Shown here: piece by piece, positions 4,862 through 28,592 of the stretch
Position numbering within the stretch: the first letter of the stretch is position 1
How the letters are laid out: each line of letters starts with the position of its first letter
The notes under the pieces: generated by a model
What the model saw: only the letters and a program-made list of their open reading frames with translations
Database searches by the model: none
Told to the model about the DNA's origin: nothing
Made by a program: the position numbers and the translations under genes
Source: an uncultured Actinomycetes bacterium
GTDB taxonomy: Bacteria; Actinomycetota; Actinomycetes; S36-B12; CAIYMF01
DNA: 32,000 bases
Assembly: GCA_963843975.1 (NCBI GenBank)
Contig: CAWJMG010000003.1
Coordinates: 2,550,001 to 2,582,000, forward strand
Direction of reading: 5' to 3'

Positions 4862-4918
4862 TCAGCAGAGGCACTTCGCTGCACCAGCCCTCGCCAGCCC
4901 CGCACTTCGGAGAACTCC

Positions 4919-7069: not shown

Positions 7070-7114
7070 GCGACGTGACCGACCTACCCGAGGCTCGGAG
7101 AGGCGGCCGTACCG

Positions 7115-8402: not shown

Positions 8403-8406
8403 CCCG

Positions 8407-11029: not shown

Positions 11030-11084
11030 CCTGCGTCGCCCGGACCGGATGGGACGGGCACAGAGTCGAGGAGCGAGACACGCC

Positions 11085-12194
11085 GTGAAGGTCATGACCG
11101 TGGTCGGAACCCGGCCCGAGATCATCCGGCTCTCGCGCATCATCGCCCGGTTCGAGGACTCGTTCGACCACGTCCTCGTGCACACCGGGCAGAACTGGGA
11201 CTTCCGGCTCAACGGCATCTTCTTCGACGAGCTCGGGCTGCGTGCACCGGACCACGTCTTCGAGCCCGACACCAGCTCGCTGGGCGGGCTGCTCGGCGAC
11301 GTGCTGCGCCACACCGAGGACGTCATCGCGCGCGAGCGCCCAGACGCCTTCGTCATGCTCGGCGACACCAACAGCGGCATCTCAGCGGTGATGGCCAAGC
11401 GCATGCGCATCCCCGTCTACCACCTCGAAGCCGGCAACCGCTGCTTCGACGAGAACGTCCCCGAGGAGATCAACCGGCGGATGTTCGATCACCTCGCCGA
11501 CTTCAACCTCGTCTACACCGAGCACGCCCGCCGCAACCTGCTCTCCGAGGGCCTGCACCCCCGCCGGATCCTGCTCACAGGCTCACCCATGCGTGAGGTG
11601 CTCGAGCACTACCGTCCGCAGATCGATGCCTCCGACGTGCTGGCCCGCACCGGCCTGACCCCCGAGGGCTACGTCCTCGTGAGCGCCCACCGCGAGGAGA
11701 ACGTCGACAAGCCGGCGAGGCTGCGCGCGCTGCTCGACTGCCTTGTCGCCGTACGGGACCGATTCGGGCTGCCGGTCCTGGTCTCCACCCACCCGCGCAC
11801 GCGCAACCGGCTGGCCGAGCTCGACACGGCGACGGACCTGGAGGGCATCACCTTCGCCGAGCCGTTCGGGTTCCACGACTACAACCACCTGCAGATGAAC
11901 GCGTTCGCGGTGCTGTCCGACAGCGGCACCATCGCCGAGGAGTCCTCGCTCCTGCGCTTCCCCGCCATCACGCTGCGGTCCTCCATCGAGCGGCCCGAGG
12001 CGCTCGACACCGGATCGATCATCATGACCGACCTGCGGCCCGAGAGCGTCGTGGACGGCATCGTCGCTGCGCGGACCGACGGCGCGCTCACCGCGGTGCC
12101 GCGCGACTACGAGATCGACGACTGCAGCATCCGGGTGCGCAACTTCATCCTGTCGACGGCCCGGGAGAACGCGCGGTGGTCGGGCCTGCTGTGA
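11085..12194 (+). CDS. fnlC: Non-hydrolysing UDP-N-acetylglucosamine 2-epimerase (FnlC/CapG/WbjD, WecB family)
   Basis: VKVMTVVGTRPEIIRL, VHTGQNWD, HLEAGNRCFDENVPEEINRR, LSDSGTIAEES. GTG at 11085 is preceded by GAGGAGCGAG. The ORF track starts at 11049, but that N-terminal extension looks non-coding. Confidence 0.85.
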   Translation: MKVMTVVGTRPEIIRLSRIIARFEDSFDHVLVHTGQNWDFRLNGIFFDELGLRAPDHVFEPDTSSLGGLLGDVLRHTEDVIARERPDAFVMLGDTNSGISAVMAKRMRIPVYHLEAGNRCFDENVPEEINRRMFDHLADFNLVYTEHARRNLLSEGLHPRRILLTGSPMREVLEHYRPQIDASDVLARTGLTPEGYVLVSAHREENVDKPARLRALLDCLVAVRDRFGLPVLVSTHPRTRNRLAELDTATDLEGITFAEPFGFHDYNHLQMNAFAVLSDSGTIAEESSLLRFPAITLRSSIERPEALDTGSIIMTDLRPESVVDGIVAARTDGALTAVPRDYEIDDCSIRVRNFILSTARENARWSGLL

Positions 12195-12281: not shown

Positions 12282-14229
12282 ATGACGGGTGACATGAGCA
12301 CCGAGCAGGATCCGAGCGCCGTCGCGCCGTCCCCTGCACGTATGCGGGTGACCCGGCGCGGCCTGCTCCTCGCAGGTCTGGTGCTGCTGGCCACCCTGAT
12401 CCTGGCGCCGCTCGTGTCGATCCTGGTCGTCAAGGTGTCTGCCTCGGCGGCGCAGGACCGGCTGGCGTCCGCCCAGGAGGCTCTGACCTCGGGTGACCTC
12501 GGCGGTGCGCAGGAGGCTGTGGCCTCGGCGCAGCGGGACGTCTTCGTGCTCGGGGCCGCCGCCGGCTCGGGCCCCATGCGCCTGCTCGGGGCCCTGCCTC
12601 CGACCTCCGACGCGGTCACCGACCTCGACCACATGGTCGTCGCCATCCAGCACATCACCGCCGCCAGCGCCTCAGCCGTCGGTGCCTACACCGCGGCGAG
12701 CGGCGACGAGCCCGGCACCCCGGCGCTCTTCGCCGACGGCCGCGTGGCCGTCGACCAGCTGCCCGGGTTCTCCCGCACCGTCGACTCGGTCGATGCCGAC
12801 CTCGCGGCCGCTGTGGCGGCGCTCGACCAGGTGCGCCCTGAGCCCGAGGGCCTCGAGTCGATCGTCAACGCCCGGAACGACGCCGTCGACCAGCTCGCCC
12901 CCCTGCAGGACACGGTCACCCGCGTCCGGGCACTGATCCCGCTGCTGCCCGGGGCCCTCGGCGACACCACGCCGCGCCGCTACCTCGTCACCATGCTCAA
13001 CGAGGGCGAAGCTTCGGGCCAGCGGCGGCGCGCCCTTGGCCGTGGCCGTGATCGAGTTCCGCGACGGTGCCTTCAGCATCCCCTTCAAGGGCGCGGTCGC
13101 CCAGATCCCGTGGCCCGGCGTGGGCACCCGCAACGGCGTGCTCCGGTGGAAGGGCGCGCCGGCGAGCCCGTGGAACTGGGACGGCGGCGACCGCGTGGAC
13201 CGGTTCGCCAACTCCAACTTCCACCTCGACTTCCGTTCGGCCGGCTACGACATGGCCGGCGCCTGGGAGGCGGGCAACTACGGCAAGGTCGACGGCGTCG
13301 TCGCCCTCGACGTCACCTCGCTCGCGGCCATCCTCCGCGCGACCGGGCCGATCCCGGAGAGTCCGTACGGCGAGCTCACTGCGGACAACATCGGGCAGAA
13401 GCTGCTCATCGACGCCTATCGGCAGTACGCCGACGACCAGGTCGCCCGCCAGACGGCGAACCAGATCATCGTGTCGGCCGTCTTCGAGCGCCTCACCCAG
13501 GCCGGGACCGCGCTGCAGGTCGCGACCGCGCTGGCCGATGTGGCGCCGGGTCGGCACGTCCAGATGTGGATGCGCGATCCCGCCCTCGCACAGCAGGTCC
13601 ACGAGCTCGGCCTCGACGGCTCGCTCAGCTCGACCGCGGTCGACCACGCGGGTCTCTACGCCCAGAACGGCAACAGCAGCAAGGCCGACATCTTCCAGAA
13701 CCGGCGCCTCACGGTCGACGCCACCCTCGCCGCCGACGGCTCGGCCGAGGTGACCCAGACCTGGCACGTCGTGCAGGCCGTGCCCAACGAGCTGCTCGGC
13801 CCAGACAAGACCGGCTATCTCTCGAGCTGGCTGGACGGCAGCTGGTTCCTGCTGCGACCGTCAGGCGCGACCGGCACGCGCGTGACCCGGCCGGACGGAT
13901 GGACGCTGGGACGCTGGCCCGACGGCGGCACGTGGGTGGACGACGGCTACGGCCAGCAGGTGCAGCGCCTCGAGGGTGCGATCGCACCCACGCAGGGTGT
14001 CGAGCTCATGGTGCGCTACCGCCTGCCGGCAGGCACGTTCTCCGGCGCGGACGGTGCCCTGCGGTACCAGCTCACCGTCGAGCCGCAGGCCATCTACGGG
14101 CCTGCCCAGGCCGAGGTGACCGTGCGCGGCCCCGGAGGCGAGGCCGTCACGCAGACCCAGGACCTGGACCGCCAGATCACCTTCTCGATCGACGTCCGCC
14201 AACCGGTCGGCGCTGCGACGACATCCTGA
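12282..14229 (+). pseudogene. DUF4012-domain membrane-anchored protein, interrupted by a +1 frameshift at 13008-13014
   Basis: N-terminal TM segment (LLLAGLVLLATLILAPLVSILVV) and coiled region are in ORF 12282 up to PRRYLVTMLNEGE. It then continues as LRASGGAPLAVAVIEFRDGAF... in the frame of ORF 13036. Length is 1948 nt, which is 3n+1. Confidence 0.7.
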
Positions 14230-14269
14230 CGACGCCTACGATGGATGCACCACAGATGGGGGAACCTGT

Positions 14270-15631
14270 ATGACCCGCGCGACCGCTACTGCCCGCCCGC
14301 GGCACCGCCGCACCAGTCTCGTCGGCGCGGCAGCGCTGGCCACCGCGGCACTGACCCTGCAGGTCACGGGCGCACTAGCCCCCGCTGAGGCAGCCTCAAG
14401 CGGGGTGCAGGTGCCGGGAGCGTTCTTCGGGATGCACGCGGCCCGCGTCGACGGCACCCTCGATGCCGACCAGAAGGCGGGCCTGGCCAAGTCCTCCGGC
14501 ATCGGTTCGATCGAGCTCCTGTCCAACGGGTCGGAGTGGGCGACGGTGGAGCCCGTGGAGGGCGCACCCACCTACACCGTCTTCGACCAGGCGATCGCAA
14601 ACGCGACAGCGGGTGGTGTGAAGGACATCAACGTCGTGCTCACGGGCACGCCGCAGTGGGCGGCAGCGAACGCACCGCGCGCCGGCGAGCCGTCCCCCGG
14701 CTACTCCTCCCCGCCCGCCGCAACTGCGAAGTGGTCGGCGTACGTCGCGGGCATCGTGAACCACTGCGTCAGCGTGCCCGCGTGCAAGGCGAACGTGAAG
14801 TCGTTCCAGGTCTGGTCCGAGGCCAACCTGCCGAGCCGCTGGAACGGCACGGGCGACCAGCTCGCCGCCCTCACGAAGCTAGCGCAGCTGAAGATCGCCG
14901 CGGCGAACACCGCCAACGGCACGAAGTTCAAGGTGATCGCGGCCAGCACCACCCTGCGCCTGCAGGGGCTCGGGGCCGGGACGTTCTACTCCAACTACCT
15001 CAAGGGCCTCAAGGCCCGCGGGTGGCCGGTCGACGTGTTCGCGTTCCACGGCTACCCCAAGGCGAGCGGCACCCCCGTCAACCGGCAGAGCCTCATCGCC
15101 TACTACAAGAACATCCTCAAGGCGGCGGGCGCCCCGACCAAGCCGCTCTGGGACGGCGAGGTCAACTACGGCGTGCCCGGCCCGGGCACCGACCCGTACC
15201 GCGCCCTCGACAACGCGACCGGCGCCGGCTACATCGCTCGCACCTACCTCGACAGCCTGCGTCTCGGCATCGCGAGGGTGTACGTCAGCGCCTGGCAGCC
15301 CGACGACGGTCCCGGCTACGGCGTGACGTTCTACCCGACCAAGCCCGGGGCCACGGCGCTGAAGACGACCTACGGCTGGCTCGCGGGCAAGTGGTACCGC
15401 GGCTGCACGACGAGCACGACCAGCGTCGGCAAGCTCGTCACGTGCAAGGTCTCGGTGACGATGTCGCCGGGCAGCTCGTCGGCGACCATCGCCTACAGCG
15501 AGGGCGGCCTCCGCAAGGTCACCGTGCCCGCCAACGGCAAGCGCAAGTGCACCCTGCTCAACGGCTGCACCACCGCCAAGCCGGGCACCTCCGTCTACGT
15601 CGGCCAGTCCCCGGTCTGGTTCGGCCCCTGA
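14270..15631 (+). CDS. Secreted (Tat-type signal) TIM-barrel clan GH-A-like glycoside hydrolase
   Basis: N-terminus RPRHRRTSLVGAAALATAALTL...APAEA is a twin-arginine-like signal. FQVWSEANL resembles the WNEPN acid/base motif, and WDGEVNYG is a candidate nucleophile strand. Intact 453-aa ORF. Confidence 0.5.
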   Translation: MTRATATARPRHRRTSLVGAAALATAALTLQVTGALAPAEAASSGVQVPGAFFGMHAARVDGTLDADQKAGLAKSSGIGSIELLSNGSEWATVEPVEGAPTYTVFDQAIANATAGGVKDINVVLTGTPQWAAANAPRAGEPSPGYSSPPAATAKWSAYVAGIVNHCVSVPACKANVKSFQVWSEANLPSRWNGTGDQLAALTKLAQLKIAAANTANGTKFKVIAASTTLRLQGLGAGTFYSNYLKGLKARGWPVDVFAFHGYPKASGTPVNRQSLIAYYKNILKAAGAPTKPLWDGEVNYGVPGPGTDPYRALDNATGAGYIARTYLDSLRLGIARVYVSAWQPDDGPGYGVTFYPTKPGATALKTTYGWLAGKWYRGCTTSTTSVGKLVTCKVSVTMSPGSSSATIAYSEGGLRKVTVPANGKRKCTLLNGCTTAKPGTSVYVGQSPVWFGP

Positions 15632-15634
15632 CGA

Positions 15635-15680
15635 TTCGGTGGTGAGGATCCGCAGCAGAGTGCGGATCCTCACTACCGAA
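15635..15680. terminator. Bidirectional intrinsic-terminator-like hairpin between convergent genes
   Basis: TTCGGTGGTGAGGATCCGCA (15635-15654), loop GCAGAG, TGCGGATCCTCACTACCGAA (15661-15680). This is a 20-bp stem with one G-U position. It lies 4 nt after the plus-strand stop and 7 nt after the minus-strand stop. Confidence 0.7.
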
Positions 15681-15686
15681 CCGGAG

Positions 15687-16496
15687 TCAGTCGGTGAGGG
15701 TGCCGGCTCGGTCGGCGGCGCGGACGAGCGCGGCCTGACGCAGAGCGGTCCAGAGCAGCACGCGGTCGTGGCCGTGGCCGTCGTCGTCCTCCGGGTGCCA
15801 CTGCACACCGATGGCCCACGCGGTCGGGTGCTCGACGCCCTCGACGACGCCGTCGTCGGCGACGGCCGCGAGCCGAAGCTCTGGCGCGACGTCGCCGACC
15901 GCCTGGTGATGGCCTGAGCGCACGATCCACTCGCGCTGGCCGAGGATCGCAGCGAGGCGCGTGCCCTCCTGCACCGTCACGTGCTCGTCGATGAAGAGCC
16001 CCGACGCGTAGTCGCCCTTGTGCAGGTGCCACGGGTCGAGGTCGGGCACGAGCGATCCGCCGAAGGCCAGGTTGAGCAGCTGCGAGCCGCGGCACACGGC
16101 GAGCACCGGCAGGTCGGCCTCGACCGCGGCGCGGATCGCGTCCATCGAGAAGAGGTCGGCCTCGGGGTCGACGCCGTACTCGTTCGGCACCGGCCCGGGG
16201 ACGCCGTACAGCTCCGAGTCGACGTCGCCGCCGCCCAGCACGAGCAGCGCATCGGCGTCGAGCACCTCGTGCGGCGGGGGCAACGGGGCCGAGGTGTCGA
16301 CGAGCCGCCAGTCGAAGCCGAGCTCGGCCAGCTCCTCGAGCGCCACGCGGGTGAAGCGCCGCACGAGGTCGGCGACGTGGTCGTTCATGTCCGGGAAGTT
16401 CAGCGACACCAGGACGTTCACGCGCGGCCCCGTGCGAGGGCCGGCGTACGACGGGGCGACCTCGGACTCGAGGACGACCGGGCTGCTGGAGCTCAT
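15687..16496 (-). CDS. Class I glutamine-amidotransferase-fold gamma-glutamyl hydrolase (peptidase C26, PuuD-like), copy 1
   Basis: 269-aa ORF. LAVCRGSQLLNLAFGG (nucleophile Cys) and GVQWHPE (His/Glu). The ATG overlaps the upstream stop (ATGA). Confidence 0.8.
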   Translation of the reverse strand: MSSSSPVVLESEVAPSYAGPRTGPRVNVLVSLNFPDMNDHVADLVRRFTRVALEELAELGFDWRLVDTSAPLPPPHEVLDADALLVLGGGDVDSELYGVPGPVPNEYGVDPEADLFSMDAIRAAVEADLPVLAVCRGSQLLNLAFGGSLVPDLDPWHLHKGDYASGLFIDEHVTVQEGTRLAAILGQREWIVRSGHHQAVGDVAPELRLAAVADDGVVEGVEHPTAWAIGVQWHPEDDDGHGHDRVLLWTALRQAALVRAADRAGTLTD

Positions 16497-17215
16497 GCGC
16501 TGGCACGTGCCTTTCCGGTGCGGGCGCGCGCGTCGTCGACGAGCGCGTCGAACAGGGCCTGCTGACGGTGTGCCAAGTGGGCGTCGTCCTCAGGATGCCA
16601 CTGCACCGCCAGGACGGGTGCATGCGCATGGGCGAGCGCCTCGACGCACCCGTCGTCGGCGCGGCCAGTCACGCGCAGCCCGAGGCCGAGCCGGTCGACC
16701 GCCTGGTGGTGGTACGACGACACGCTCACGCGGTCGGCGCCGATGACCTCGGCGATGCGCGCACCCGGCTCGAACGTGACGTCGTGGAAGGCGTTGCGGT
16801 GCAGTCCCTCCGGGTCGTCCAGGTGCTGCACGAGCGTGCCGCCGAGTGCCACGTTCAGCGCCTGCATCCCGCGGCAGATCGCGAGAGTCGGCACGCCCAG
16901 CTCCACGACGGCGCGCAGCACGGCGAGATCAGCCGCGTCCTGCACGGCGTCCGGCTCGTCCGTGCTGTCGTGGCGTTCGTCGTCGCCGTACGCCGACGGG
17001 TCGAGGTCTCGACCGCCCGGCACGAGCACTCCGTCGAACGCGCCGATCCGCCCGACGACCTCGCGCGGGTCGTCCGGCGCGAGCAGCAACGGCTCGCCAC
17101 CCGCGCGCAGCACGCATTCGGCGATGCGCTCGGCCATCACCAGCCCCGAGCGACGGAGGCCGTCGACGCGGGGCGAGCGCAGGGCAGGCACGGCGATGAG
17201 CGGACGTCCCCTCAC
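16493..17215 (-). CDS. Class I glutamine-amidotransferase-fold gamma-glutamyl hydrolase (peptidase C26, PuuD-like), copy 2
   Basis: VRGRPLIAVPA...LAICRGMQALNVALGG...AVQWHPE. GTG at 17215 overlaps the upstream stop (GTGA). The 541-aa ORF in the track is an artefactual upstream extension. Confidence 0.75.
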   Translation of the reverse strand: MRGRPLIAVPALRSPRVDGLRRSGLVMAERIAECVLRAGGEPLLLAPDDPREVVGRIGAFDGVLVPGGRDLDPSAYGDDERHDSTDEPDAVQDAADLAVLRAVVELGVPTLAICRGMQALNVALGGTLVQHLDDPEGLHRNAFHDVTFEPGARIAEVIGADRVSVSSYHHQAVDRLGLGLRVTGRADDGCVEALAHAHAPVLAVQWHPEDDAHLAHRQQALFDALVDDARARTGKARASA

Positions 17216-17922
17216 GCGGCGCCTTGGCCGAAGGGGTACTCCAGCGACGGGAGCCACTGCTGCCAGACCTCGGCGTGCCGTCCGTCCGCGATGACGGTCG
17301 CGAGGGCGGCGTCGATCTCGTCGCGCAGCTCCGGCCGGTCCTTCGCGACGCCGACGCCCCACCGGTTTCCGGTGCGCACGGTGAACGCGAGGGAGAACCG
17401 CGGGTCGTCGTCGAGCGGCACGAACACCAGGTCGTCGTCCACGACACCGTCGACCTCGCCGCGCTCGAGCGCACCGAGCATGTCGCCGAACACGTCGCCG
17501 CTCTCCCCGCCGAAGGCGACCGTGACCGCGCCCGGGAACGTCTCGGCGAGCGCCATGTTGGTGCTCCCCGTGATGGCACCGATGCGCAGACCGGCGCAGT
17601 CCTCCGGCGACCGGATCGCGCTGCCGGCACGGACGAGCAGGCCCTCGTGGAAGACGCCGTACGGACGGGTGAAGTCCACCAGCTCCTGACGCGAGGGGAT
17701 GATGCTCTGCCCGCACCAGACGGCGTCGGCCTCGTGCCGCTGGACCGACGGGATCATGTCGTTCCACGGCACCATCGCCCACTCGACCGTGCGGCCCATC
17801 ACCGAGGCGACCAGCGCGGCCACCGCGGGCTCGTAGCCGTCGCGGACGATGCCGTCCGGGCTCTTGGTGAACAGCGGCGGCGCGTCGGCGTCGAGGCACG
17901 CGAGCCGGAGCACGGCGCTCAC
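17212..17922 (-). CDS. Family-3 solute-binding-protein-fold (PBPb) protein with no signal peptide or lipobox
   Basis: VSAVLRLACLDADAPPLFTK...WNDMIPSVQ...LRIGAITGSTNMALAE...VDGVVDDD. GTG at 17922 overlaps the GS-like stop (GTGA). There is no hydrophobic N-terminal segment. Confidence 0.65.
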   Translation of the reverse strand: MSAVLRLACLDADAPPLFTKSPDGIVRDGYEPAVAALVASVMGRTVEWAMVPWNDMIPSVQRHEADAVWCGQSIIPSRQELVDFTRPYGVFHEGLLVRAGSAIRSPEDCAGLRIGAITGSTNMALAETFPGAVTVAFGGESGDVFGDMLGALERGEVDGVVDDDLVFVPLDDDPRFSLAFTVRTGNRWGVGVAKDRPELRDEIDAALATVIADGRHAEVWQQWLPSLEYPFGQGAA

Positions 17923-19302
17923 GGGATCGCCTGCTCGTAGCGGGCCTGCTCCCAGTCGGTGACGGCCGCGCAGAAGCGCGCCCACTCGTCCGACTTGAGA
18001 TCGACGAGCAGTGCGGACAGGTCCGCACCCAGAGCGTCGCGGACGACGTCGTCCTTGCGGAAGGCGGTGATCGCATCGGCCAGCGTGAGGGGCAGCGGCT
18101 CGAACTGCGTCGCCTCACCGTCGTACGAGCTGCCGACCGTGGGGGCGCCCGGGTCGAGCTTGTTCGCGAGGCCGTCAGCGGCTGCAGCGATGATCGCGGC
18201 GTGCGAGAGGTACGGGTTCACACTCGCATCGGGCAGCTTGTACTCGAGGCGCCCGTTGGCAGACAGCCGCACGGTGCAGGTCTTGTTGTCCATGCCCCAG
18301 TTGATCTGCGACGGCGCGAACTGCCCGGAGTCCCAGTAGCGCTTGTAGGAGTTCACGGTCGAGCCGTTGATCAGCATCGTGCCCGCGGCGTGGCTGAGGA
18401 TGCCGCCAAGGGCGTGCTGGCCCTCGTCGGTGAGGTGCAGCTCGGTGCGGCCGGGCTCGGCGAGGATGTTGACGTCGTCGCGCCAGAAGCTGACGTTGTG
18501 GTGGCAGCCGTTGCCCATCATCCCGGTGGCCGGCTTGGGCATGAAGCTCGCGACGAGGCCGAGCTCGCGCGCCACCTGCTTGCAGATCTGCCGGTAGACC
18601 ACGAGCCGGTCGGCGGTGAGGTCGGAGTGGTCGTACATCCAGTTGAGCTCGAGCTGGCCCGGGTCCTCGTAGTCGCCCTCGATCATGTCGAGGCCGAGGG
18701 CCTGCGCGTAGCGGATCACTCGCTGGTAGACCGGGCGCATCTTCTCGAGGTTCTCGACGTGGTACGCCGGGCTCGATCCGGGCGCGAAGTGCACCTCGAG
18801 CCCCGGACCCTTCCACGTCATCTCCGGCTCGCATCCTGAGCGCATGTGCAGGCCGGTGCTCGCGGTGAACTCGGCATGCACACGCTTCATCGCGCCGCGG
18901 CTGTCGGTGGCGAGGCGCTGGCCGCCGACCTCGGGCAGATGCTCGGGCTCGTAGATCTGGGTGAAGAACCGCGCGACCGTGGTGTCCCACGGCAGGACGG
19001 CGAAGGTGTCGAGGTCGGGCATCGCGGTGAACTCGGCCGCGTGCACCCCGCCGCCGAGCAGGTTGCCCGCGCGGTCCGACTGCAGGTCGGAGATCGCGGT
19101 GCGGTGCAGGTTGACGCCGCGGTCGAGGTTGCGCCGCAGGTGCTTGGCCGGCACCACCTTCCCGATCACGCGCCCGGTCACGGTGACGCCCTGGTAGTAC
19201 ACGAACTCGACGCCTGAGCTTCTCGATCGTCCGTGCGATCTCGTCGACCTGGGCCGCGTCGGCGTTCGCCTCGCGGTGCTGGTCGAGCGGGGTCTTCGAC
19301 AT
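17919..19302 (-). pseudogene. Glutamine-synthetase-family gamma-glutamyl-amine ligase (PuuA/GlnA3/GlnA4/IpuC-like), interrupted by a +1 frameshift near 19214-19226
   Basis: N-terminus MSKTPLDQHREANADAAQVDEIARTIEK is in the frame of ORF 18175-19461; ATG at 19302 with a GAGAGGA ribosome-binding site. The remainder (GVEFVYYQGVTVTGRVIGK...FMPKPATGMMGNGCHHNVSFW...NSYKRYW) is in the frame of ORF 17919. Length is 1384 nt, which is 3n+1. Confidence 0.75.
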
Positions 19303-19336
19303 AGGGATCCTCTCGGGGCGGGACTGGACGACGGGT

Positions 19337-20551
19337 TCAGACGAGCTGGGCGGCGTCGAGCACCAGGGCGCGGTGCTCGGCGTGCCGGGACACGGGGATG
19401 TTGACGAGGAGGGCGCCGACCGTGGCGCCGCCGCGGCGGTAGAGGACGGCCGTTCCGGCACCGAGGTCGGCCAGCGAGCCCTCGACCACCTCGACCGAGT
19501 CGGCGAGGGCCGGCGCGCCGAAGCTCTGCAGGCGCAACCCGAACTGGTCGCTCCAGAACGCCGGCAGCGGGGTGAAGGACGTGTCCGGCACGGATTCGCC
19601 GGCGAGATGGGCCACCAGGGTCTCGGCCGCGCGCTTCGCCGTGTCGCCGGGGATGGACCAGTGCTCGACGCGCCGCGGCACGTCGTCGTACCTCGGGTTG
19701 GGGAACCGCGCGATGTCGCCGACGGCGACGACGTCGTGCCGGCCCTCCACGCGCAGGTGGTTGTCGCAGAGCAGGCCGTCGGACAGGTCGAGGCCGTTCC
19801 CGTCGAGCCACTCCACGTTCGCGTGCGACCCCACCGACTCCACGACGATGTCGGCCTCGATGGGCGAGCCGTCGTCCAGCAGGACGCCGGTCACGCGGCC
19901 GTCGGCGCCGAGCAGCTCGGCGACCCCCTGCCCGGTCACGAAGCGGACGCCCGCCCCGCGGTGGTGCGCCAGCAGCGCCGAGCCGACGTCGGGGCCGACC
20001 CCGCGGACCATCGGCACCGGCAGAGGCTCGACGACGGTGACCGAGCACCCGAGCGACTGCAGGGTGGACGCCGTCTCGCAGCCGATGAACCCGCCGCCTA
20101 CCACGACGGCACGGACACCGGCACGCACGTCGGCCCGCAGCGCCGCGGCGTCCTCAACGGTCCTGACGACGTGCCGACCACCGGCCGGGTCGAGTGCAGG
20201 GAGCCGGCGCGGGCGCAGCCCGGTGGCCGCGACGAGGGCGTCGAAGCGGAGGACGGCGCCGTCCGACAACGCCGCCGTCCCCCGCTCCAGCGAGGTCGCG
20301 GTGACCGAGACCCCGAGCCTCCAGTCGAGCTCCTCGACGCTGACGCGCCGACGGAACGCGAGCGAGGACACCAGCGACGGGACGTCGTGATGCGGTCCCG
20401 AGAGGGCCTCCTTCGAGAGCGGAGGCCGGTTGTACGGCGGATGCGGCTCGGCACCCACGACGGTGATCGAGCCGTCGAAGCCCTGGGCGCGGAGCTGCTC
20501 GGCGGCACGCAGGCCCCCGAGCGAGGCCCCGACCACGAGGACGGACGGCAC
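19337..20551 (-). CDS. FAD/NAD(P)H-dependent ferredoxin reductase (putidaredoxin-reductase-like)
   Basis: 404-aa ORF. VLVVGASLGGLRAAEQLR (FAD GxGxxG), VVVGGGFIGCETAS (NAD fold), YNRPPLSKE. Confidence 0.8.
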   Translation of the reverse strand: MPSVLVVGASLGGLRAAEQLRAQGFDGSITVVGAEPHPPYNRPPLSKEALSGPHHDVPSLVSSLAFRRRVSVEELDWRLGVSVTATSLERGTAALSDGAVLRFDALVAATGLRPRRLPALDPAGGRHVVRTVEDAAALRADVRAGVRAVVVGGGFIGCETASTLQSLGCSVTVVEPLPVPMVRGVGPDVGSALLAHHRGAGVRFVTGQGVAELLGADGRVTGVLLDDGSPIEADIVVESVGSHANVEWLDGNGLDLSDGLLCDNHLRVEGRHDVVAVGDIARFPNPRYDDVPRRVEHWSIPGDTAKRAAETLVAHLAGESVPDTSFTPLPAFWSDQFGLRLQSFGAPALADSVEVVEGSLADLGAGTAVLYRRGGATVGALLVNIPVSRHAEHRALVLDAAQLV

Positions 20552-20555
20552 GGCG

Positions 20556-20744
20556 TCAGTCCTCGATGAAGATCGCCTGCACAGGGCAGACGTCCATCGC
20601 GTCCTCGACCTGCTGGCGCAGGGAATCGTCCGGCGCGCCCTCGAAGACGAGCTTGCTGTTCTCGTCCATCTGGAAGACGGCCGGCGCTGCGATCGCGCAC
20701 TGGCCGTGGTCCTGGCACAGGTTCATGTCGACGACGACCTTCAT
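20556..20744 (-). CDS. Small [3Fe-4S]/[4Fe-4S]-type ferredoxin, P450 redox partner
   Basis: MKVVVDMNLCQDHGQCAIAAPAVFQMDENSKLVFEGAPDDSLRQQVEDAMDVCPVQAIFIED, 62 aa. CxxxGxC...CP cysteine pattern. The ATG overlaps the P450 stop (ATGA). Confidence 0.8.
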   Translation of the reverse strand: MKVVVDMNLCQDHGQCAIAAPAVFQMDENSKLVFEGAPDDSLRQQVEDAMDVCPVQAIFIED

Positions 20745-21982
20745 GCGCGTGCCTCCGAAGCCGTGGGGGTGAACAGGAGGGGGAGCTTGGTGGGGCCGGT
20801 GTTGCCGGAGTACGGCAGCCACTCGGAGCCCGCGCCGACCCGGAGGTCGGGCATGCGCGCGGCGAGGATCGGCAGGGCCACGGACATGTCCATGCGGCCC
20901 ACGAAGTGGCCGAGGCAGTGGTGGGCGCCGCCGCCGAAGCCGAAGTGCGGCGTGCGCCCTTCGACGGTGATGTCGAAGGCCGGGCTCTCGACGGCGTCGG
21001 GGTCGGTGCCGGCCGACTCGGAGAACAGATGGATCGTCGTGCCGGCGGGGATCTGAAGGCCCTCGAACTCGAAGTCGTCGAGCGCCTCGCGGGTCACCCA
21101 GGTGACCGTGGGGGCGACGCGCATGACCTCCTCGACCGCGGCCTTGCCGAGATCGGGGTTGGCGCCCAGGAGCGCCCACTGGTCGGGGTGGTCCGCGAAG
21201 GTCTGCATCGCCAGGCTCAGCTGGTTGCGCGTGGTGTCGAAGCCGCCGAAGACCATGAGCGCCATCGAGTTGCGCAGCTCGGTCGCCGAGAGCCTCTCGT
21301 CGTCGCGCTGCGCCTGCACGAGCGCGGTGGCGAAGTCGTCGCGGGGCTTCGCCGTGCGGTCGGCGATCACCGCGTCGCAGTAGGCGAAGAGCTCGGTCAG
21401 CGCCGCCTCGATCTGCGGCAGCTCCTCCTGGAACGTGACGCCCATCGCCAGGCCGATGGTGGCCGACAGGCTCGCGATCTGCGGCCAGTCCTCCTCCGGC
21501 AGACCGAGCAGGATCGCGATGACGCGGGCGGCGTACGGCTCGGCGAACTCCGCGACGTACTCGCACTCGCCGGTGGGCGCGAACCCGTCGACCAGCTCGT
21601 TCGCCAGCGCGACGAAGCGCGGCGAGAGGGAGGCGAGGGCACGCGGCGAGAAGGCCGGGTTGAGCAGGCGGCGCAGGCGGGCGTGGTCCTCGCCCTCCAT
21701 GTTGAGCAGCCAGCCCGCCCACCACTCTGCGAACGGCCCGGTCACGCCGTTGTGCGCGGGCCAGGCCCAGCTGCCCTGGCGCAGGCGGCGGTCCTTGATG
21801 AGCCGGTTGACCTCGTCGTAGCGGAGCACGGCGAGGCCGTACGGCGTCCGCGCGCACCAACCCTCGGCACGGGCCTCACGGACGGCGTCGGACTGGACCG
21901 AGAACGACGGGTCCGAGACGGGGAGGTACGGGAGCTCGTCCCACGACAGCGGGGCTGCAGGCGCGATGGGGATGGAGGTCAT
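20741..21982 (-). CDS. Cytochrome P450 monooxygenase
   Basis: 413-aa ORF. Heme-thiolate loop FGFGGGAHHCLGHFVG, EXXR element (EEVMRVAP) and I-helix-like MVFGGFDTTRN. Confidence 0.9.
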   Translation of the reverse strand: MTSIPIAPAAPLSWDELPYLPVSDPSFSVQSDAVREARAEGWCARTPYGLAVLRYDEVNRLIKDRRLRQGSWAWPAHNGVTGPFAEWWAGWLLNMEGEDHARLRRLLNPAFSPRALASLSPRFVALANELVDGFAPTGECEYVAEFAEPYAARVIAILLGLPEEDWPQIASLSATIGLAMGVTFQEELPQIEAALTELFAYCDAVIADRTAKPRDDFATALVQAQRDDERLSATELRNSMALMVFGGFDTTRNQLSLAMQTFADHPDQWALLGANPDLGKAAVEEVMRVAPTVTWVTREALDDFEFEGLQIPAGTTIHLFSESAGTDPDAVESPAFDITVEGRTPHFGFGGGAHHCLGHFVGRMDMSVALPILAARMPDLRVGAGSEWLPYSGNTGPTKLPLLFTPTASEARA

Positions 21983-21989
21983 GCGTTAA

Positions 21990-22018
21990 AGCATTGACCT
22001 CATATGTTTTCCTGTCAA
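21990..22018 (-). promoter_or_regulatory. Candidate sigma-70-type promoter giving a leaderless P450 transcript
   Basis: On the minus strand: TTGACA (22018-22013), 17-nt spacer, AATGCT (21995-21990). The -10 element ends about 7 nt before the ATG at 21982. This is the most AT-rich stretch of the window. Confidence 0.35.
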
Positions 22019-22032
22019 GACCTCGCGACGAC

Positions 22033-22770
22033 CTACGTCGACGGTGTCAGGACGAGAGTCCAGCCGAGGTCGGCCACGACGGGCAGGACGACCACGTCGG
22101 GGAGGGGGCCTCCACCGTCGGCCTCGAGCCGCACGCGGGCGCCGGTGGCGAAGTGCGGGGTGTTCGCCGTGACCACGCGCCGCTCGTGGTTGAGCAGCGC
22201 TGCGCGCGACGGGATGCGGCGCAGCACCGGCAGCAGCTCGGACTCGAGGTGCGCGAGGGCCACATCAGCACCCGCGACTCCGGCGAACGCGTCGCCGACC
22301 ACGACGGGGATGGCGAAGGTGAGGGCGAAGCGGTCCGCGCCCCGGTAGTCGAAGTACGGCCCGCCGACCATGCGCCGACCCTCGTCGCGCGGCACCCGGA
22401 ACCACTCCATCTCGGGGTAGTCGTACGGGTCGTCGCTCGTCGGATCAATGTCGAGCAGCAGCGCCTCCGGAGCACCGCCCGGGGCGAGCTGACGCCACTC
22501 GAGGTGGCGCTCGCGATCCGCCAGGTAGCCAGGCTCTAGGACGATGCCCGCACCGACCAGCAGCGTGTCGTCCGTGAGCGCGTGCTCCGCGAAGGGGCGC
22601 ACACCGAGGAGGTCGTCGCTCGTCACGCGGCCGGTGCGCGAGGCGGCTGACGCGATCGAGGCGAACGTCTCCGCGACGGGCGCGAGCTCCTCGAAGACAC
22701 GCTCCACCGGCGCCGCGAGCTCGTGCGCCGCCTGCCGCATCTCGTCCGTCACAGCCTGGTCACCGGCCAC
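22033..22770 (-). CDS. Stand-alone Cache (dCache_1-type) ligand-sensor-domain protein with no TM segment or output domain
   Basis: 245-aa ORF. DPYDYPEMEWFRVPRDEGRRMVGGPYFDYRGADRFALTFAIPVVVGDAFAGVAGADVALAHLES matches the Cache core pattern (Y-D-Y..W-F...PY.D...G....T.A.PV.....GV.G.D..L). Confidence 0.65.
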   Translation of the reverse strand: MAGDQAVTDEMRQAAHELAAPVERVFEELAPVAETFASIASAASRTGRVTSDDLLGVRPFAEHALTDDTLLVGAGIVLEPGYLADRERHLEWRQLAPGGAPEALLLDIDPTSDDPYDYPEMEWFRVPRDEGRRMVGGPYFDYRGADRFALTFAIPVVVGDAFAGVAGADVALAHLESELLPVLRRIPSRAALLNHERRVVTANTPHFATGARVRLEADGGGPLPDVVVLPVVADLGWTLVLTPST

Positions 22771-23518
22771 CGGAATCCCCTCCGTGCAGCTCGATGCGAG
22801 CCTCGATCAGCTTGTGCGTGTTGGCTTCCACGTGCTGCTCCGCCAGGGTGCGGGCGAGCGTGGAGTCCTCCCGCGAGATCGCCAGCGCGATGGCGTGGTG
22901 CTGCTCGGCAGCCTTGCGCGCGTCCTCGTCGGTGGCTCCCGGGAGCCACAGGAGCACGCCCAGCTCGGCCTGCAGCGACACCTCGGCCCGGGTGAGCCGT
23001 TCGGACGCCGCGGCCACCGCCACCTCGATGTGGAACCGGGTGTCGGCCCGCGTGCGGTCGCCGACGCCGACGGCCTCCTCGACGCGCCCGGCCAGCGAGA
23101 GCAGCCGGCGGACGTTGTCGGTCGACGCGCGCGACGCCGCGAGCCTCGCCGCCGCGCCTGACACGGCGGCCAGCTCGTCGCCGGCGTCACGCAGGTCGCT
23201 GACGGACAAGGCCGCCAGCTGCGCCCGCAGCACGGCCTTGGTCGGGTCACCGGGCGCGCGTACGAAGCTGCCGCCGTTCCGGCCGCGCTTGGTCTCGACG
23301 AGGCCCTGCTCGCGCAGGCTCGCCAGCGCCTCGCGCAGCGTCACGGTCGAGACGCCCAGCTGGGCCGACAGCTCGGTCTCGCTCGGCAGCTGCTCGCCGT
23401 CCGAGAGGAGTCCGAGCGCCACCGACTCGGTGATGCGCTGGATGACGGCGTCGGTGCGCCCGCCGGAGATGAGCGGCGCGAACACGGTCGTGCGCGCGGA
23501 CACCCGTCCGTCGGCCAT
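22760..23518 (-). CDS. GntR-family (FadR/FCD subfamily) transcriptional regulator
   Basis: Winged-HTH region LPSETELSAQLGVSTVTLREALASLREQGLVETKRGRNGGSFV, followed by an all-helical FCD-like C-terminal domain. The ATG at 23518 (MADGRVSARTT) is preferred over the 23593 start in the track. Overlaps the Cache gene by 11 nt. Confidence 0.8.
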   Translation of the reverse strand: MADGRVSARTTVFAPLISGGRTDAVIQRITESVALGLLSDGEQLPSETELSAQLGVSTVTLREALASLREQGLVETKRGRNGGSFVRAPGDPTKAVLRAQLAALSVSDLRDAGDELAAVSGAAARLAASRASTDNVRRLLSLAGRVEEAVGVGDRTRADTRFHIEVAVAAASERLTRAEVSLQAELGVLLWLPGATDEDARKAAEQHHAIALAISREDSTLARTLAEQHVEANTHKLIEARIELHGGDSGGR

Positions 23519-23649: not shown

Positions 23650-23678
23650 TTGTGCAATGACCTATGAAGGTTTAGGTT
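23650..23678 (+). promoter_or_regulatory. Candidate promoter of the permease gene
   Basis: TTGTGC (23650-23655), 17-nt spacer, TAGGTT (23673-23678). AGGAGA ribosome-binding site at 23741-23746 before GTG at 23751. Inverted hexamers AGGTCA (23631-36) and TGACCT (23658-63) flank or overlap the -35 element. Confidence 0.3.
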
Positions 23679-23750: not shown

Positions 23751-25262
23751 GTGAGCGAGTCCGCCGCGCACCACGACGAGGACGCCGCGCGCCTCGCCGC
23801 GCTTGGCTACACCTCGGAGTTCAAGCGGGACATGAGCCTCTGGGCGAACTTCTCGCTCGGCTTCACGTACCTGTCGCCCGTCGTGGGCATCTACTCCCTC
23901 TTCGCCTTCGCCCTCGCGACCGGCGGCCCGCCCATGATCTGGTCGCTCGTGATCGTGGGCGTCGGCCAGTTCCTCGTCGCGCAGGTCTTCAGCGAGGTCG
24001 TCGCGCAGTACCCCGTCGCCGGCGGCGTCTACCCCTGGGCCCGTCGCCTGTGGGGCAAGAAGTGGGCCTGGATGACCGGTTGGGTCTACCTGATCGCCCT
24101 GCTCGCCACGATCGCGTCGGTCACCTTCGGCGCCGGCCCGTACGTCGCGGCCGTCCTCGGCATCGACGCCAGCGTCGAGAACGCGATCTGGTGCGCCCTC
24201 GCCCTCCTCGCGATCGCGACGGCGATCAACTTCGGCGGCACCAAGGTGCTGTCGTACGCCGCCATCGCCGGCTTCACGGCCGAGATCATCGGCGCGCTCG
24301 TCGTCGGCGTCTGGCTGCTGCTGTTCCACCGCGAGCAGAGCTTCAGCGTCCTGTTCGACACGTTCGGCACCCAGGGCGACGGCTCGTACCTCCCGGCGTT
24401 CGCTGCTGCGGCCCTCATCGGCGTGTACCAGTACTACGGCTTCGAGGCGTGCGGCGACGTCGCGGAGGAGGTGCCCGACCCGGGCATCCGCATCCCGAAG
24501 TCGATGCGCCGCACCATCTACATCGGCGGTGCTGCCGCGACGTTCGTGTGCCTGTCGCTGATCCTCTCCGTGACCGACATCAACGCCGTCATCTCCGGCG
24601 ACGACGCCGACCCCGTCGGCACGATCCTCACGAACGCGTTCGGCGAGACCGGCTCGAAGATCGTCCTCACGGTCGTGCTGCTCTCGTTCCTGTCGTGCGC
24701 TATGAGCCTCCAGGCCGCGGCGTCCCGCCTCGCCTACTCGTACGGCCGCGACAAGATGATCATGGGCTCGGGCCTCTGGTCGAAGTTCTCCCAGACCCGC
24801 CACGTCCCGCCGTACGCACTGCTGCTGGCGGCCGTGATCCCGGCTCTGATCGTGATCAGCGCGAAGTTCTCGACCGATGCGCTCACGAAGATCATCAGCT
24901 TCGCGGCGCTCGGCATCTACATCGCGTTCCAGATGGTCGTCCTCGCTGCGCTCCGTGCCCGGTTCAAGGGCTGGAAGCCCAGCGGCAAGTTCCAGCTCGG
25001 CGCGTGGGGTCTTCCGATCACCGTTCTGGCCCTCGTGTACGGGATCATTGCGATGATCAACATGGCGTGGCCGCGCACCCCGGACGCGTCGTTCGTCGAC
25101 AACTACATCGTCGCGATCTCCGCGGTCGTCGTGATCGGCATCGGTCTCGTCTACATGGTGATCGCCAAGCCCTACGACCGGGGCGACGCGCCGCACGGTG
25201 ACGCGATCGACGCCGGCACGTGGGAGCACGACCACAAGGTCCACACGATCGAGTCCATCTAG
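23751..25262 (+). CDS. APC-superfamily amino acid/amine permease
   Basis: Intact 503-aa ORF with about 12 hydrophobic helices. FSLGFTYLSPVVGIYSLF and QYPVAGGVYPWARRLWG are typical of APC permeases. Confidence 0.8.
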   Translation: MSESAAHHDEDAARLAALGYTSEFKRDMSLWANFSLGFTYLSPVVGIYSLFAFALATGGPPMIWSLVIVGVGQFLVAQVFSEVVAQYPVAGGVYPWARRLWGKKWAWMTGWVYLIALLATIASVTFGAGPYVAAVLGIDASVENAIWCALALLAIATAINFGGTKVLSYAAIAGFTAEIIGALVVGVWLLLFHREQSFSVLFDTFGTQGDGSYLPAFAAAALIGVYQYYGFEACGDVAEEVPDPGIRIPKSMRRTIYIGGAAATFVCLSLILSVTDINAVISGDDADPVGTILTNAFGETGSKIVLTVVLLSFLSCAMSLQAAASRLAYSYGRDKMIMGSGLWSKFSQTRHVPPYALLLAAVIPALIVISAKFSTDALTKIISFAALGIYIAFQMVVLAALRARFKGWKPSGKFQLGAWGLPITVLALVYGIIAMINMAWPRTPDASFVDNYIVAISAVVVIGIGLVYMVIAKPYDRGDAPHGDAIDAGTWEHDHKVHTIESI

Positions 25263-25297: not shown

Positions 25298-27123
25298 GTG
25301 CACGAGATCGCCGGCTTCCTGCGGGGGTTCCCGCCGTTCGAGGGGGCGGCCGACGACGTGCTCGACGCCGTCGTCGACGCCACCGAGATCGAGTTCTTCC
25401 ACCAGGGCGCGTGGATCCTGCGCGCCGGCGAGGCCAACGACGGCTTCGCGCACGTGGTGCGCACCGGCCACGTCGAGCTGATCGACTCCGGCCGCGTCAT
25501 CGACGTCATCGGGCCGGGCGACCTGGTCGGCCTTCCCTCGCTCGTGAGCGACCTGCCGCCCGGGCTCGACGTACGCGCCGCCGAGGACGTGCTCGCCTAC
25601 CGCATCCCCGCCGACGCCTTCCTGCCGCTGCTGGCTGGTCGCAGCGGCCTGCGCTTCCTCGCCCGAACCGTGCGCGACCGCACCCCTGCGCTCCCCTCCG
25701 AGCAGCTCACCGAGACCGCCGTCGAGCAGGTCGGCTCCCTCGCGCGAACCGCCGTCGTCGTGACACCAGGGACGCCGATCGGCGACGTCGTGCGCGGGAT
25801 GCGGGAGCGCGACGCCTCCTGTGCCCTCGTCCGCGGCGACGACGGCGTGCTCGGCATCGTCACCGACCACGACCTGCGCAACCGCGTGCTCGCCGTAGGC
25901 CTCGAGCGCGCTCGCCCATCGGCGCCGTCGCGACGTCGCCGGCCCGCACCACCACCCCCGACCAGACGGCCGACGACGCCGTGCTCGCGATGCTCGCCCA
26001 CGGCATCCGCCACCTCCCGGTCGTCGCGGCCGACGGCACGGTGGTCGGCGTCCTCGAGGACGTCGACCTCCTCGCTGCCCAGAGCCGTACGCCGGTGCGC
26101 GTGCGCCGAGCGATCGCGCGCGCGACCACGCCGGGCGAGCTCGTCGAGGTGGCGCAGGCCATCAGGCCCTCCGTCGTCGGCGCCGTCCGCGCGGGCCACC
26201 CGGCGGCGACGGTGAGCACCACGCTCTCGACGCTCCTCGAGGCGGTCGTGGCCAAGGCCGTCGAGCTGCACGTCCGCGAGCGCGGCGTGCCGCCCAAGGC
26301 CTTCGCGTGGTTGGTGACCGGCTCGGTCGCCCGCCGCGAGGCCGTGCTCTCGAGCGACCTCGACTCCCTCATCGCCTGGGAGGGTGACGACGACGACCAG
26401 CCCACGAAGACGTGGATGCGTGCGCTCGCCGCCGACGTGCTCGTCACCCTCGACGCGTGCGGCCTGTCGCACGACGACAACGGCGTGCGCGCGGACGACC
26501 CTCGGTTCTCCCGCTCGGTCGACAGCTGGTTGGACGCCGTCCGCACCTGGGCCACGGACCCCACCGTGGGCCAGGCCGACATCTACCTGGCCACGCTCAT
26601 GGACGCACGACCGGTGTGGGGCCACGGCTCGTGGACGCCGGTGCAGGACGCCGTCGTCGCAGCGCACGGACGGCGGTACGTGCGCAGCGCGCTGCACCGC
26701 GTCGCCACCGGGCTGCGTCCGCCGACGGGCTTCGTGCGGGACCTCGTGATCGAGGACTCCGGCGAGCACGCCGGCACGCTCGACCTCAAGCGCGGCGGCT
26801 TCATGCCCGTCGTCGCGATCGGACGCTACCTCGAGGCGTTCGTACCCGGCCCGCTCACGTCGTCGACCGTCGACCGCGTGCGGGCCGCTGCCGTCCGCGG
26901 TGCCATCTCCGACGAGGACGCGCGCGACCTCGTCGACGCGTTCGACGTCGTGCAGACGGAGCGGCTCGAGCACCAGGTGGCACAGCTCGGCGCGGGCGAG
27001 ACGCAGGACGACCACGTGCGTCCCGACTCGCTCACGACGCTCGCGCGCCGCGGGCTGCGCGACGCGTTCCGGGTCGTGACGCGCGTGCAGAAGGCGCTGC
27101 CGCCGCCGGACCTGCAGCCATGA
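25298..27123 (+). pseudogene. cNMP-binding + tandem CBS + DUF294 putative nucleotidyltransferase, interrupted by a -1 frameshift within 25904-25917
   Basis: GTG at 25298 follows AGGAGG. The cNMP and first CBS part (FLRGFPPF...GIVTDHDLRNRVLAVGLE) is in the frame of ORF 25220. The remainder (SPIGAVATSPA...HLPVV...WLVTGSVARREAVLSSDLDSLIAWEG, a GS...D.D NTase motif) is in the frame of ORF 25198. Length is 1826 nt, which is 3n+2. Confidence 0.75.
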
Positions 27124-27755: not shown

Positions 27756-28592
27756 GGAGCGCGAGCGCGGTCACGCCGCCCACGACGAGGGCGACGCCCA
27801 GGATCTGCAGGCGCCCCAGGCGTTCGCGGTAGACGACGTACGCGATGACCGCGGCGAACGTCGCGAACTGCGAGGCCAGCACGGAGGCGACGGCCACGCT
27901 GTCGCGCGCCGCGAACGCGAACGCCACGAAGCCGCCGACCTCCATGAGCCCCGTAGTCACGACGTACGGCGCCGCCGCGCGGTTCATCCGCAGGCGCCCC
28001 GTGACGGCCAGCGGAACCGCGAGGAGCACGACACCCGCCAGCCGGGGAGGCAGGGACGCCCACGCCACGGGCAGGTCGCCGCTGAGTCGACCGATCGAGT
28101 AGAGCGCGAGCCCGAAGACCACGGCGCCGCAGGTCGCGAGGAGAACCGCACGCACCGGGCGCTCGTGCTCGATGGGGGCGGGGTCGGGAGCCACCGAGGA
28201 GACGACGACGCCCACCACGATGACCGCGAGCGCCAGCACCACGAGCGGCGCGATCGACTCGCCGAACACCGACGACACCACGGCCGCCACCGCCCCCTCG
28301 GTCGCCACGACCGGTGCGACCAGGCCCACCTTGCCGACCTTGAGCGCGGCGTACGCGAAGAGCAGACCCCCGACGTTGCCCAGGCCTGCGAGGCCGAACC
28401 ACAGCAGATTCGTGCCGCTGAGCTCGCCGGGACGCCGCCGCCGAGCGCGAACGGCAGCGTCAGCACGAGACCGATCAGCATGGCCCAGGCGACGACCGAG
28501 TACTGGTCGAGGACCTTCACCGATCGCGACGACGACACCGTGCTGACCGACCAGGCCAACGCGGTGGTCAGCCCGAGCACGACGGCGATCAC
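27745..28592 (-). pseudogene. EamA/DMT-family transporter, interrupted by a -1 frameshift within about 28420-28445
   Basis: N-terminus MIAVVLGLTTALAWSVSTVSSSRSVKVLDQYSVVAWAMLIGLVLTLPFALGGGV is in ORF 27984-28592. The remainder (PGELSGTNLLWFGLAGLGNVGGLLFAYAALKVGKVGLVAPVVATEG...) is in the frame of ORF 27745. Length is 848 nt, which is 3n+2. Confidence 0.7.

Follow-up and report, generated by a model that had tools for sequence, protein, structure and literature searches.

The stretch of DNA analysed here, referred to as the window, comprises 32,000 nucleotides from an uncultured Actinomycetes bacterium (assembly GCA_963843975.1, contig CAWJMG010000003.1, positions 2,550,001 to 2,582,000). Between positions 15687 and 21982, its minus strand carries a run of genes for a cytochrome P450, the redox partners of this enzyme, a glutamine synthetase-like (GS-like) ligase, a protein with the fold of a substrate-binding protein (SBP), and two hydrolases of the Peptidase C26 family. 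By every sequence criterion tested, this cluster is an orthologue of the pipR-pipA locus of Mycolicibacterium smegmatis and a member of the pipA/mor family. Its probable function is the breakdown of small cyclic secondary amines, those of the pyrrolidine, piperidine or morpholine type, in a cassette by which the amine would be tagged with glutamate before it is oxidised. An earlier note on this DNA had called the amine substrate unknown; orthology to the pip locus supplies at least a predicted class, that of the cyclic secondary amines.

The gene order in M. smegmatis mc2 155 (permease, GntR regulator, Cache-domain protein, P450, ferredoxin, GS-like ligase, SBP-like protein and two C26 hydrolases) matches that of the window. 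Identities between the counterparts are 75% for the permease, 51% for the GntR regulator, 35% for the Cache protein, 65–68% for the P450 (67.5% over 394 amino acids by blastp, 65% by tblastn), 58% for the ferredoxin, 70% for the ligase, 59% for the SBP-like protein, and 52% and 50% for the two hydrolases, here termed C26a and C26b. According to the usual nomenclature rule, P450s that are more than 55% identical belong to the same CYP subfamily, and the window enzyme, at 67.5% identity to PipA, lies above this threshold; we take the family to be CYP151. As expected of a pip locus, a GntR/FadR-type regulator with GntR and FCD domains is encoded upstream of the P450, a small ferredoxin gene lies directly 3′ of the P450 gene, and the GS-like gene follows the redox partners. 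The M. smegmatis regulator shares a 90% cluster with AAD28343.1, a 'regulatory protein' of mc2 155 whose accession neighbours that of pipA and stems from the submission of the pipA paper. PipA (AAD28344.1) and MorA have been described as N-heterocycle hydroxylases (PMC9477822), PipA and PipR as serving the use of piperidine and pyrrolidine (PMC9477822, PMC2018728), and the M. smegmatis regulator itself, MSMEG_6700, has been named as controlling the metabolism of both amines (PMC2018728).

The two loci differ in several respects. The window carries a ferredoxin reductase gene, which is lacking in the M. smegmatis pip locus, whereas it has neither the insertion sequence upstream of the P450 nor the PucR, aminotransferase or acyl-CoA genes downstream; furthermore, its promoter is leaderless, its operator sequence differs and its ligase open reading frame (ORF) is frameshifted. 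The window locus presumably also matches the morABC-orf1′ operon of Mycobacterium sp. HE5, in which orf1′ is GS-like and which we take to include a ferredoxin reductase. This mor operon was reportedly described by Sielaff and Andreesen in 2005 in connection with morpholine, as the M. smegmatis pipR-pipA genes are said to have been by Poupin et al. in 1999 for the utilisation of piperidine and pyrrolidine. The structures 3p3l and 3p3o are, we assume, those of AurH.

The cassette is widespread. With the ligase as seed and one genome taken per species, a scan returned 336 relatives, of which the best 80 (65–91% identity) were kept; they stem from Kineosporia, Streptomyces, Actinomadura, Nocardioides, Intrasporangium, Mycolicibacterium and many metagenome-assembled genomes. 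Among those of the best 80 loci with enough flanking sequence (67 or 72, depending on the gene), the P450 is adjacent in 66/67, the regulator and the Cache protein are each encoded in 66/67, the permease in 64/67, the ferredoxin in 59/67 and the reductase in 47/67. The SBP-like protein is present in all 72 of 72, at least one C26 hydrolase in 66/72 and both in 52/72. This gene arrangement is far beyond chance and recurs in dozens of genera. The proposal of the earlier note that the P450 system and the ligase and hydrolase genes form one functional unit is thus supported by the counts for the P450, the SBP-like protein and the hydrolases. The P450 itself has 150 positions with a conservation of at least 97% among 76 orthologues. 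P450 and ligase still occur together on a Ruegeria plasmid whose P450 shows 55% identity; the association no longer holds for P450s of 51% and 48% identity, which are found in unrelated contexts.

Two of the relatives deserve a separate mention. The plasmid of Ruegeria sp. SCSIO 43209 (locus L088, 7983–17023) harbours an alphaproteobacterial variant under an Lrp/AsnC regulator, with the P450 (55%), two GS-like genes, a type 1 amidotransferase and a 2Fe-2S ferredoxin; a complete ATP-binding cassette (ABC) transporter with an SBP of its own is also encoded there. In one genome of Mycolicibacterium chlorophenolicum, the ligase-SBP-C26-C26 block is found a second time (L075); this copy has a ferredoxin, with no P450, regulator or permease detectable upstream, and is the sole exception to the P450 association.

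All genes of the operon in the window lie on the minus strand. The PipA/MorA-type P450 (20741–21982; Pfam p450, E=8e-23) has the heme motif FGGGAHHC356LG, an EXXR motif at residue 285 and the I-helix motif GGFDTT at 246. It is followed by a ferredoxin of 62 amino acids (20556–20744; Fer4_13 and Fer4_15) with three cysteines (CxxHxxC...CP) that probably hold a 3Fe-4S cluster, and by an FAD/NAD(P)H-type ferredoxin reductase with a GTG start (19337–20551; Pyr_redox_2, E=8e-52, and Reductase_C). Further downstream are the ligase, a predicted gamma-glutamyl-amide synthetase with a broken frame (17919–19302; Gln-synt_C, E=1e-70), a cytoplasmic SBP_bac_3-fold protein without a signal peptide (17212–17922; SBP_bac_3 match), and two predicted gamma-glutamyl hydrolases of the Peptidase C26/PuuD family, C26a (16493–17215; Peptidase_C26, E=7e-51) and C26b (15687–16496; Peptidase_C26, E=1e-39), the latter with a divergent N-terminal region of about 80 amino acids. 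ORFs and Pfam matches therefore bear out the gene order given in the earlier note, and the four overlaps of 4 nucleotides that it listed are all present (ATGA at 20741–20744, GTGA at 17919–17922, GTGA at 17212–17215 and ATGA at 16493–16496). Its description of a single translationally coupled unit holds for these four junctions but not for the other two: ferredoxin and reductase genes are separated by a 4-nucleotide spacer, and reductase and ligase genes by a gap of 34 nucleotides with a GAGAGGA ribosome-binding site of its own, so translational coupling does not extend to every junction.

The ligase falls below the cut-off of all NCBIfam equivalogs. The best-scoring hidden Markov model (HMM) is that of the type III/GmaS enzymes (TIGR03105; 280 bits against a cut-off of 469.6), followed by GlnA (TIGR00653; 216 against 429) and the PuuA-type GGputSyn model (200 against 650), and the best solved relatives are the glutamate-methylamine ligases (gamma-glutamylmethylamide synthetases, GmaS) 9qur and 7cql. 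Gln-synt_N was not detected in the 431 amino acids of the ligase that are in frame, a query that leaves out the first ~29 residues, nor among the 120 full-length homologues listed; PF00120 was the only match in both cases. An ordinary glutamine synthetase (GSI, GlnA) is ruled out by the HMM cut-offs. It is important to point out that such neighbours of PipA-like P450s have been understood otherwise, since a 2022 study of Gulosibacter still took the adjacent 'glutamine synthetase' genes as serving ammonium assimilation (PMC9477822). That the GS-like and amidotransferase-like genes of the window serve general nitrogen assimilation and merely adjoin a P450 operon is nevertheless extremely improbable, given the failed GlnA cut-off, the near-universal adjacency to the P450 (66/67) with 4-nucleotide overlaps, and hydrolases that are of the PuuD type and not synthase subunits.

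For both C26 proteins PuuD is the best NCBIfam match, with 80 bits (C26a) and 72 bits (C26b) against a cut-off of 266. Their catalytic triads, Cys114/His207/Glu209 in C26a and Cys135/His234/Glu236 in C26b, are conserved in at least 97% of orthologues. The two paralogues are 40% identical to each other and each forms an orthologous series of its own across genera; Nocardioides lineages retain only C26b, and several Actinomadura only C26a or neither. That some lineages keep one or the other suggests overlapping rather than strictly sequential roles. In 16 of the 52 loci with both hydrolases, a gap of about 1.5 kb (more than 1.2 kb) separates the two genes, and in both loci of this kind that were examined it holds an aldehyde dehydrogenase gene: the Streptomyces enzyme (L019) has PuuC as its best family match (598 bits), and that of Nocardioides (L042) resembles succinate-semialdehyde dehydrogenases.

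Overall, a gamma-glutamyl pathway is the best reading of the locus, because ligase, P450 and hydrolase are conserved together and a PuuC-like or succinate-semialdehyde-dehydrogenase-like enzyme is encoded between the hydrolases in relatives. The scheme resembles that of Escherichia coli Puu (PuuA, PuuB, PuuC and PuuD), with the same succession of tagging, oxidation to the aldehyde, aldehyde dehydrogenation and C26 hydrolysis; ligase, aldehyde dehydrogenase and PuuD-type hydrolase are shared, and in the pip cassette the P450 replaces the oxidase PuuB. The likeness has its limits, in that none of the window proteins reaches the Puu equivalog cut-offs and the substrate of Puu is a diamine (putrescine), unlike that of the pip cassette.

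From the orthology and these precedents we infer both a substrate class and an order of steps. The amine would be imported by the APC permease, and the PipR-like GntR repressor, possibly together with the Cache protein, would release the promoter that abuts the start codon of the P450. The GS-like ligase would then join glutamate to the amine at the expense of ATP, which yields a gamma-glutamyl amide and removes the basic nitrogen, and the P450, supplied by the 3Fe-4S ferredoxin and the reductase, would hydroxylate the carbon next to the nitrogen. The resulting carbinolamide would open to a gamma-glutamyl-omega-aminoaldehyde for oxidation by an aldehyde dehydrogenase, which is encoded within the operon in the Streptomyces and Nocardioides relatives and would be supplied from elsewhere in this genome, whereupon the PuuD-type C26 hydrolases would release glutamate and gamma-aminobutyric acid or 5-aminovalerate. 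Tagging is placed first because this is the order in the Ipu pathway (PMC6776027) and because the ring cannot be closed again by attack of an amide nitrogen on the aldehyde: an N-acyl hemiaminal would be expected to open to an aldehyde unable to return to the imine.

Several points weigh against this reading. An identity of 65% to PipA is not enough to fix the substrate specificity, the sequence as it stands has a frameshift in the ligase ORF, the operon in the window lacks an aldehyde dehydrogenase gene, and the literature searched shows no experimental gamma-glutamylation of a secondary amine in actinobacteria. Two further points also lend weight to the converse order, in which the P450 would, in line with the classical MorA/PipA literature, act on the free cyclic amine and the ligase on the ring-opened amino-aldehyde or amino compound, followed by a Puu-like aldehyde dehydrogenase and PuuD. 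PMC9477822, citing Sielaff and Andreesen (2005), reports that free morpholine was oxidised in vitro by recombinant MorA together with its ferredoxin and reductase, which cuts against an obligate gamma-glutamyl substrate; and primary amines are the substrates of those characterised GS-like ligases that PMC11335346 names. Enzymes of the PuuC and PuuD kind would fit either order. We nevertheless consider oxidation before tagging unlikely, since omega-aminoaldehydes would be expected to cyclise spontaneously to imines, which would make their capture by a ligase chemically awkward, and since the Ipu precedent is one of tagging first. In spectra of MorA, free secondary amines reportedly tend to ligate the heme iron. 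The proteobacterium Pseudomonas sp. KU43P is said to employ a gamma-glutamylpiperidide synthetase (there named PipA) and a P450 system (PipBa/Bb/Bc) for piperidine and pyrrolidine, likewise with tagging as the first step.

The Ipu system provides a published parallel to the tag-first cassette, and the novelty implied by the earlier note is not supported on this count, nor in view of the pip orthology. In Arthrobacter aurescens TC1, a three-component P450 that is described as acting on gamma-glutamyl-isopropylamide is encoded beside a GS-like ligase and a glutamine amidotransferase (GATase)-type hydrolase (PMC6776027), and the gene order on plasmid pTC1 (CP000475) is GATase, P450, ferredoxin, ferredoxin reductase, IpuC. 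Architecture and logic of Ipu (Pseudomonas sp. KIE171; Paenarthrobacter aurescens TC1, pTC1 and pTC2) are shared with the window, whereas identities are low: 28.6% for the P450, 27% for the ligase, 34% for the reductase and 38–40% for the hydrolase. Moreover, Ipu has no SBP-like gene and no Cache/GntR pair but an AsnC-type regulator, and its substrate is a primary amine that is hydroxylated on a methyl group and not beside the nitrogen. Orthology is ruled out with pTC1 proteins that are only 27–40% identical and, judged by these comparisons, Ipu is an analogue of the window cluster and not a relative. Could the window cassette follow the same logic of tagging, oxidation and untagging on another amine, for example an acyclic alkylamine like that of Ipu, or a different natural amine? 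The 65–68% identity to PipA is indeed not near-identity, the nearest solved ligase relatives act on methylamine, and the genes that flank the locus in the close relative L003 encode iron-containing alcohol dehydrogenase, Baeyer–Villiger monooxygenase (BVMO)-like and short-chain dehydrogenase/reductase (SDR) enzymes. This option appears quite improbable to us, however, as the P450 and ligase of A. aurescens TC1 are only 27–29% identical to those of the window, synteny with the pip locus extends to all ten genes of the window locus and takes in the regulator, and the 150 near-invariant P450 residues argue for a shared type of substrate.

A second comparison concerns plasmid pGKT2 of Gordonia sp. 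KTR9, where the same gene order is found, with 45% identity for the FCD regulator (XplR), 35% for the Cache protein, 64% for the P450 and 67.6% for the GS-like protein. Near residue 361 the match to the GS-like protein breaks off and passes into the gene for the XplB reductase, with XplA next in line, and this copy has lost the SBP and C26 genes. We take the corresponding genes of KTR9 to be those named cyp151C and glnA-xplB. The xplAB island appears, from this arrangement, to have landed in a cyclic-amine operon or to have recruited its regulator and promoter. The genes for the degradation of hexahydro-1,3,5-trinitro-1,3,5-triazine (RDX), annotated as an FAD oxidoreductase and a P450 of 552 amino acids, lie inside a homologous pip-type cluster (L002, 4068–11079).

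At 19220/19221, a single additional A interrupts the frame of the ligase gene: here the window has GAGAAGCTC and its relatives have GAGAGCTC, as judged from the 98%-identical ligase protein and from DNA alignment; this closest homologue reads ...ARTIESSGVEFVYYQ... in the region. The first 28 codons are consequently out of frame with the other 431. Taken at face value, this could mark the operon as a recently inactivated remnant, with a real +1 frameshift at codon 28 and a dead pathway in this strain; the shift does stand in the sequence, and the ORF that begins at the ATG at 19302 leads into the wrong frame, among homologues that are uniformly 456–475 amino acids long in the matches listed. 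The comparison with L003, with which the window is colinear over 13 kb at 87.8% DNA identity, makes such a remnant very improbable. Past the shift, protein identity between the ligase and its counterpart in the relative reaches 97.7%, with DNA that is only 87.8% identical, which indicates purifying selection until very recently. In addition, single-base indels of the same kind interrupt two neighbouring conserved genes, for an EamA transporter (28421–28431) and a cNMP/CBS/DUF294 nucleotidyltransferase (25906–25912), both within 13 kb. An assembly error is for this reason more likely than a real pseudogene, and the occurrence of three single-base indels within 13 kb suggests errors of assembly instead of three pseudogenes. 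All three sites adjoin GAGCTC- or GCTCGAG-like strings.

Little in the SBP-like protein points to transport. In the window, it has neither an export signal nor a lipobox, and its N-terminus begins directly in the mature fold; the locus contains no ABC permease or ATPase genes. A search for a hidden signal by way of the open frame upstream of the gene is uninformative at a guanine-plus-cytosine (GC) content of 72%, and the distance to the ligase stop codon was used instead: in most of 79 loci the SBP gene starts where the ligase gene stops, and 44 of them have an identical −4 nucleotide overlap. A role as a transporter component is ruled out by the missing signal peptide and the missing ABC partner genes. 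Its best solved relatives are glutamine/arginine- and glutamate/glutamine-binding proteins, and the positions that clamp an alpha-amino acid, R78 and D162–164, show a conservation of at least 95%. Since gamma-glutamyl amides are glutamines substituted at N5, it is reasonable to propose that the SBP-like protein binds glutamate or gamma-glutamyl compounds, including intermediates of the pathway. A bolder and more tentative idea, which we consider possible but rather doubtful, extends this to the whole PipA/MorA family: the true substrate of the P450 would be the gamma-glutamyl tertiary amide made by the ligase, and the SBP-fold protein would be an obligate cytoplasmic partner, either as a carrier that hands the intermediate on or as a specificity subunit of the ligase.

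The conserved locus reaches upstream of the span covered by the earlier note. Adjacent to the P450 on the minus strand are the genes for a soluble Cache/PDC-domain protein (22033–22770; MCP-like_PDC_1) and for the GntR/FadR-type regulator (22760–23518; GntR and FCD domains), the PipR orthologue, whose start was set by comparison with L003; the start of the Cache gene and the stop of the regulator gene overlap by 11 nucleotides. An APC-family amino-acid/amine permease (AA_permease_2) is encoded divergently on the plus strand (23751–25262). The Cache protein, which is 35% identical to both the KTR9 and M. smegmatis counterparts, lacks an N-terminal transmembrane segment, and the literature searched assigns no role to this partner; it may form a two-protein ligand sensor with the PipR-like regulator.

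The promoter and candidate operator of the P450 lie directly 5′ of its gene (21983–22018, minus strand). In the window and its close relatives, TTGACA (22013–22018) is followed after 17 nucleotides by AATGCT (21990–21995) and after another 7 nucleotides by the ATG of the P450, and there is no Shine–Dalgarno sequence, which implies that the P450 transcript is leaderless. The alignment of upstream regions from 13 loci reveals that TTGACA and an adjacent palindrome are kept in all genera; in the other genera the palindrome, ACTCTAGnnCTAGAGT, covers the −10 element and a normal leader follows. In the window, the candidate operator AGGTCAATGC (21991–22000) overlaps the −10 element. The 10-mer AGGTCAWTGC occurs exactly twice in the 32 kb, at 21991–22000 and at 23654–23663 between the regulator and permease genes, where about 0.04 exact matches would be expected by chance as estimated from base composition. 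The unit from the P450 to C26b thus possesses a regulated promoter of its own, and the regulator and Cache genes make up a separate unit.

The 3′ boundary is formed by a GC-rich hairpin (15633–15682), recognised by folding, that sits exactly between two convergent stop codons and is probably a bidirectional terminator. With −45.2 kcal/mol and z = −7.07 (0/200 shuffles fold as well), it confirms the strong hairpin which the earlier note had placed at the end of the operon; it has no T tract. Generic scans for sigma-70 promoters and terminators found nothing, and the promoter was recognised through the cross-species alignment. Rfam and tRNA scans gave no matches in the window, the GC content of which, 68–75%, is actinobacterial in composition.

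Colinearity with L003 ends at the stop codon of C26b and the hairpin (window 15687, L003 13615 onward). Beyond this breakpoint, L003 encodes an iron-containing alcohol dehydrogenase, a BVMO-like flavoprotein, a second GS-like protein (28% identical), SDR enzymes and another flavin-containing monooxygenase, while in the window there follows a convergent gene for a secreted protein of unknown family (14270–15631). Next to it, long plus-strand ORFs overlap in two frames (12282–14273 and 13036–14229); only the frame at 12937–14229 has a gene-like third-position GC content, with no Pfam match, and the region 12282–14273 may be another frameshifted or mis-started gene. The first part of the window (1–12194) holds a surface-polysaccharide biosynthesis cluster unrelated to the amine locus, with two DegT-type aminotransferases, a FemAB-like acetyltransferase, two Polysacc_synt_2 dehydratases, a glycosyltransferase, a Wzy-type ligase/polymerase and a UDP-GlcNAc 2-epimerase.

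The window locus itself adds nothing new in kind, as it belongs to an already described and widespread family with a known substrate class. Its value lies in how such loci are read: genes annotated as 'glutamine synthetase', 'glutamine-binding periplasmic protein' and 'glutamine amidotransferase' beside PipA-like P450s are to be understood as one amine-catabolic cassette and not as nitrogen assimilation or transport. The family-wide survey also flags two conserved accessory proteins, the SBP-like protein of the cytoplasm and the Cache protein that accompanies PipR, and it gives evidence that gamma-glutamyl intermediates are probably what the classical morpholine and piperidine P450s act on, where the question of free amine or amide is testable in M. 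smegmatis. If the SBP-fold protein is indeed a partner within the pathway, a binding protein of the transporter type would have acquired a soluble, intracellular role, and if the gamma-glutamyl reading holds for the whole family, it would revise the textbook view of a direct attack of the P450 on the free amine.

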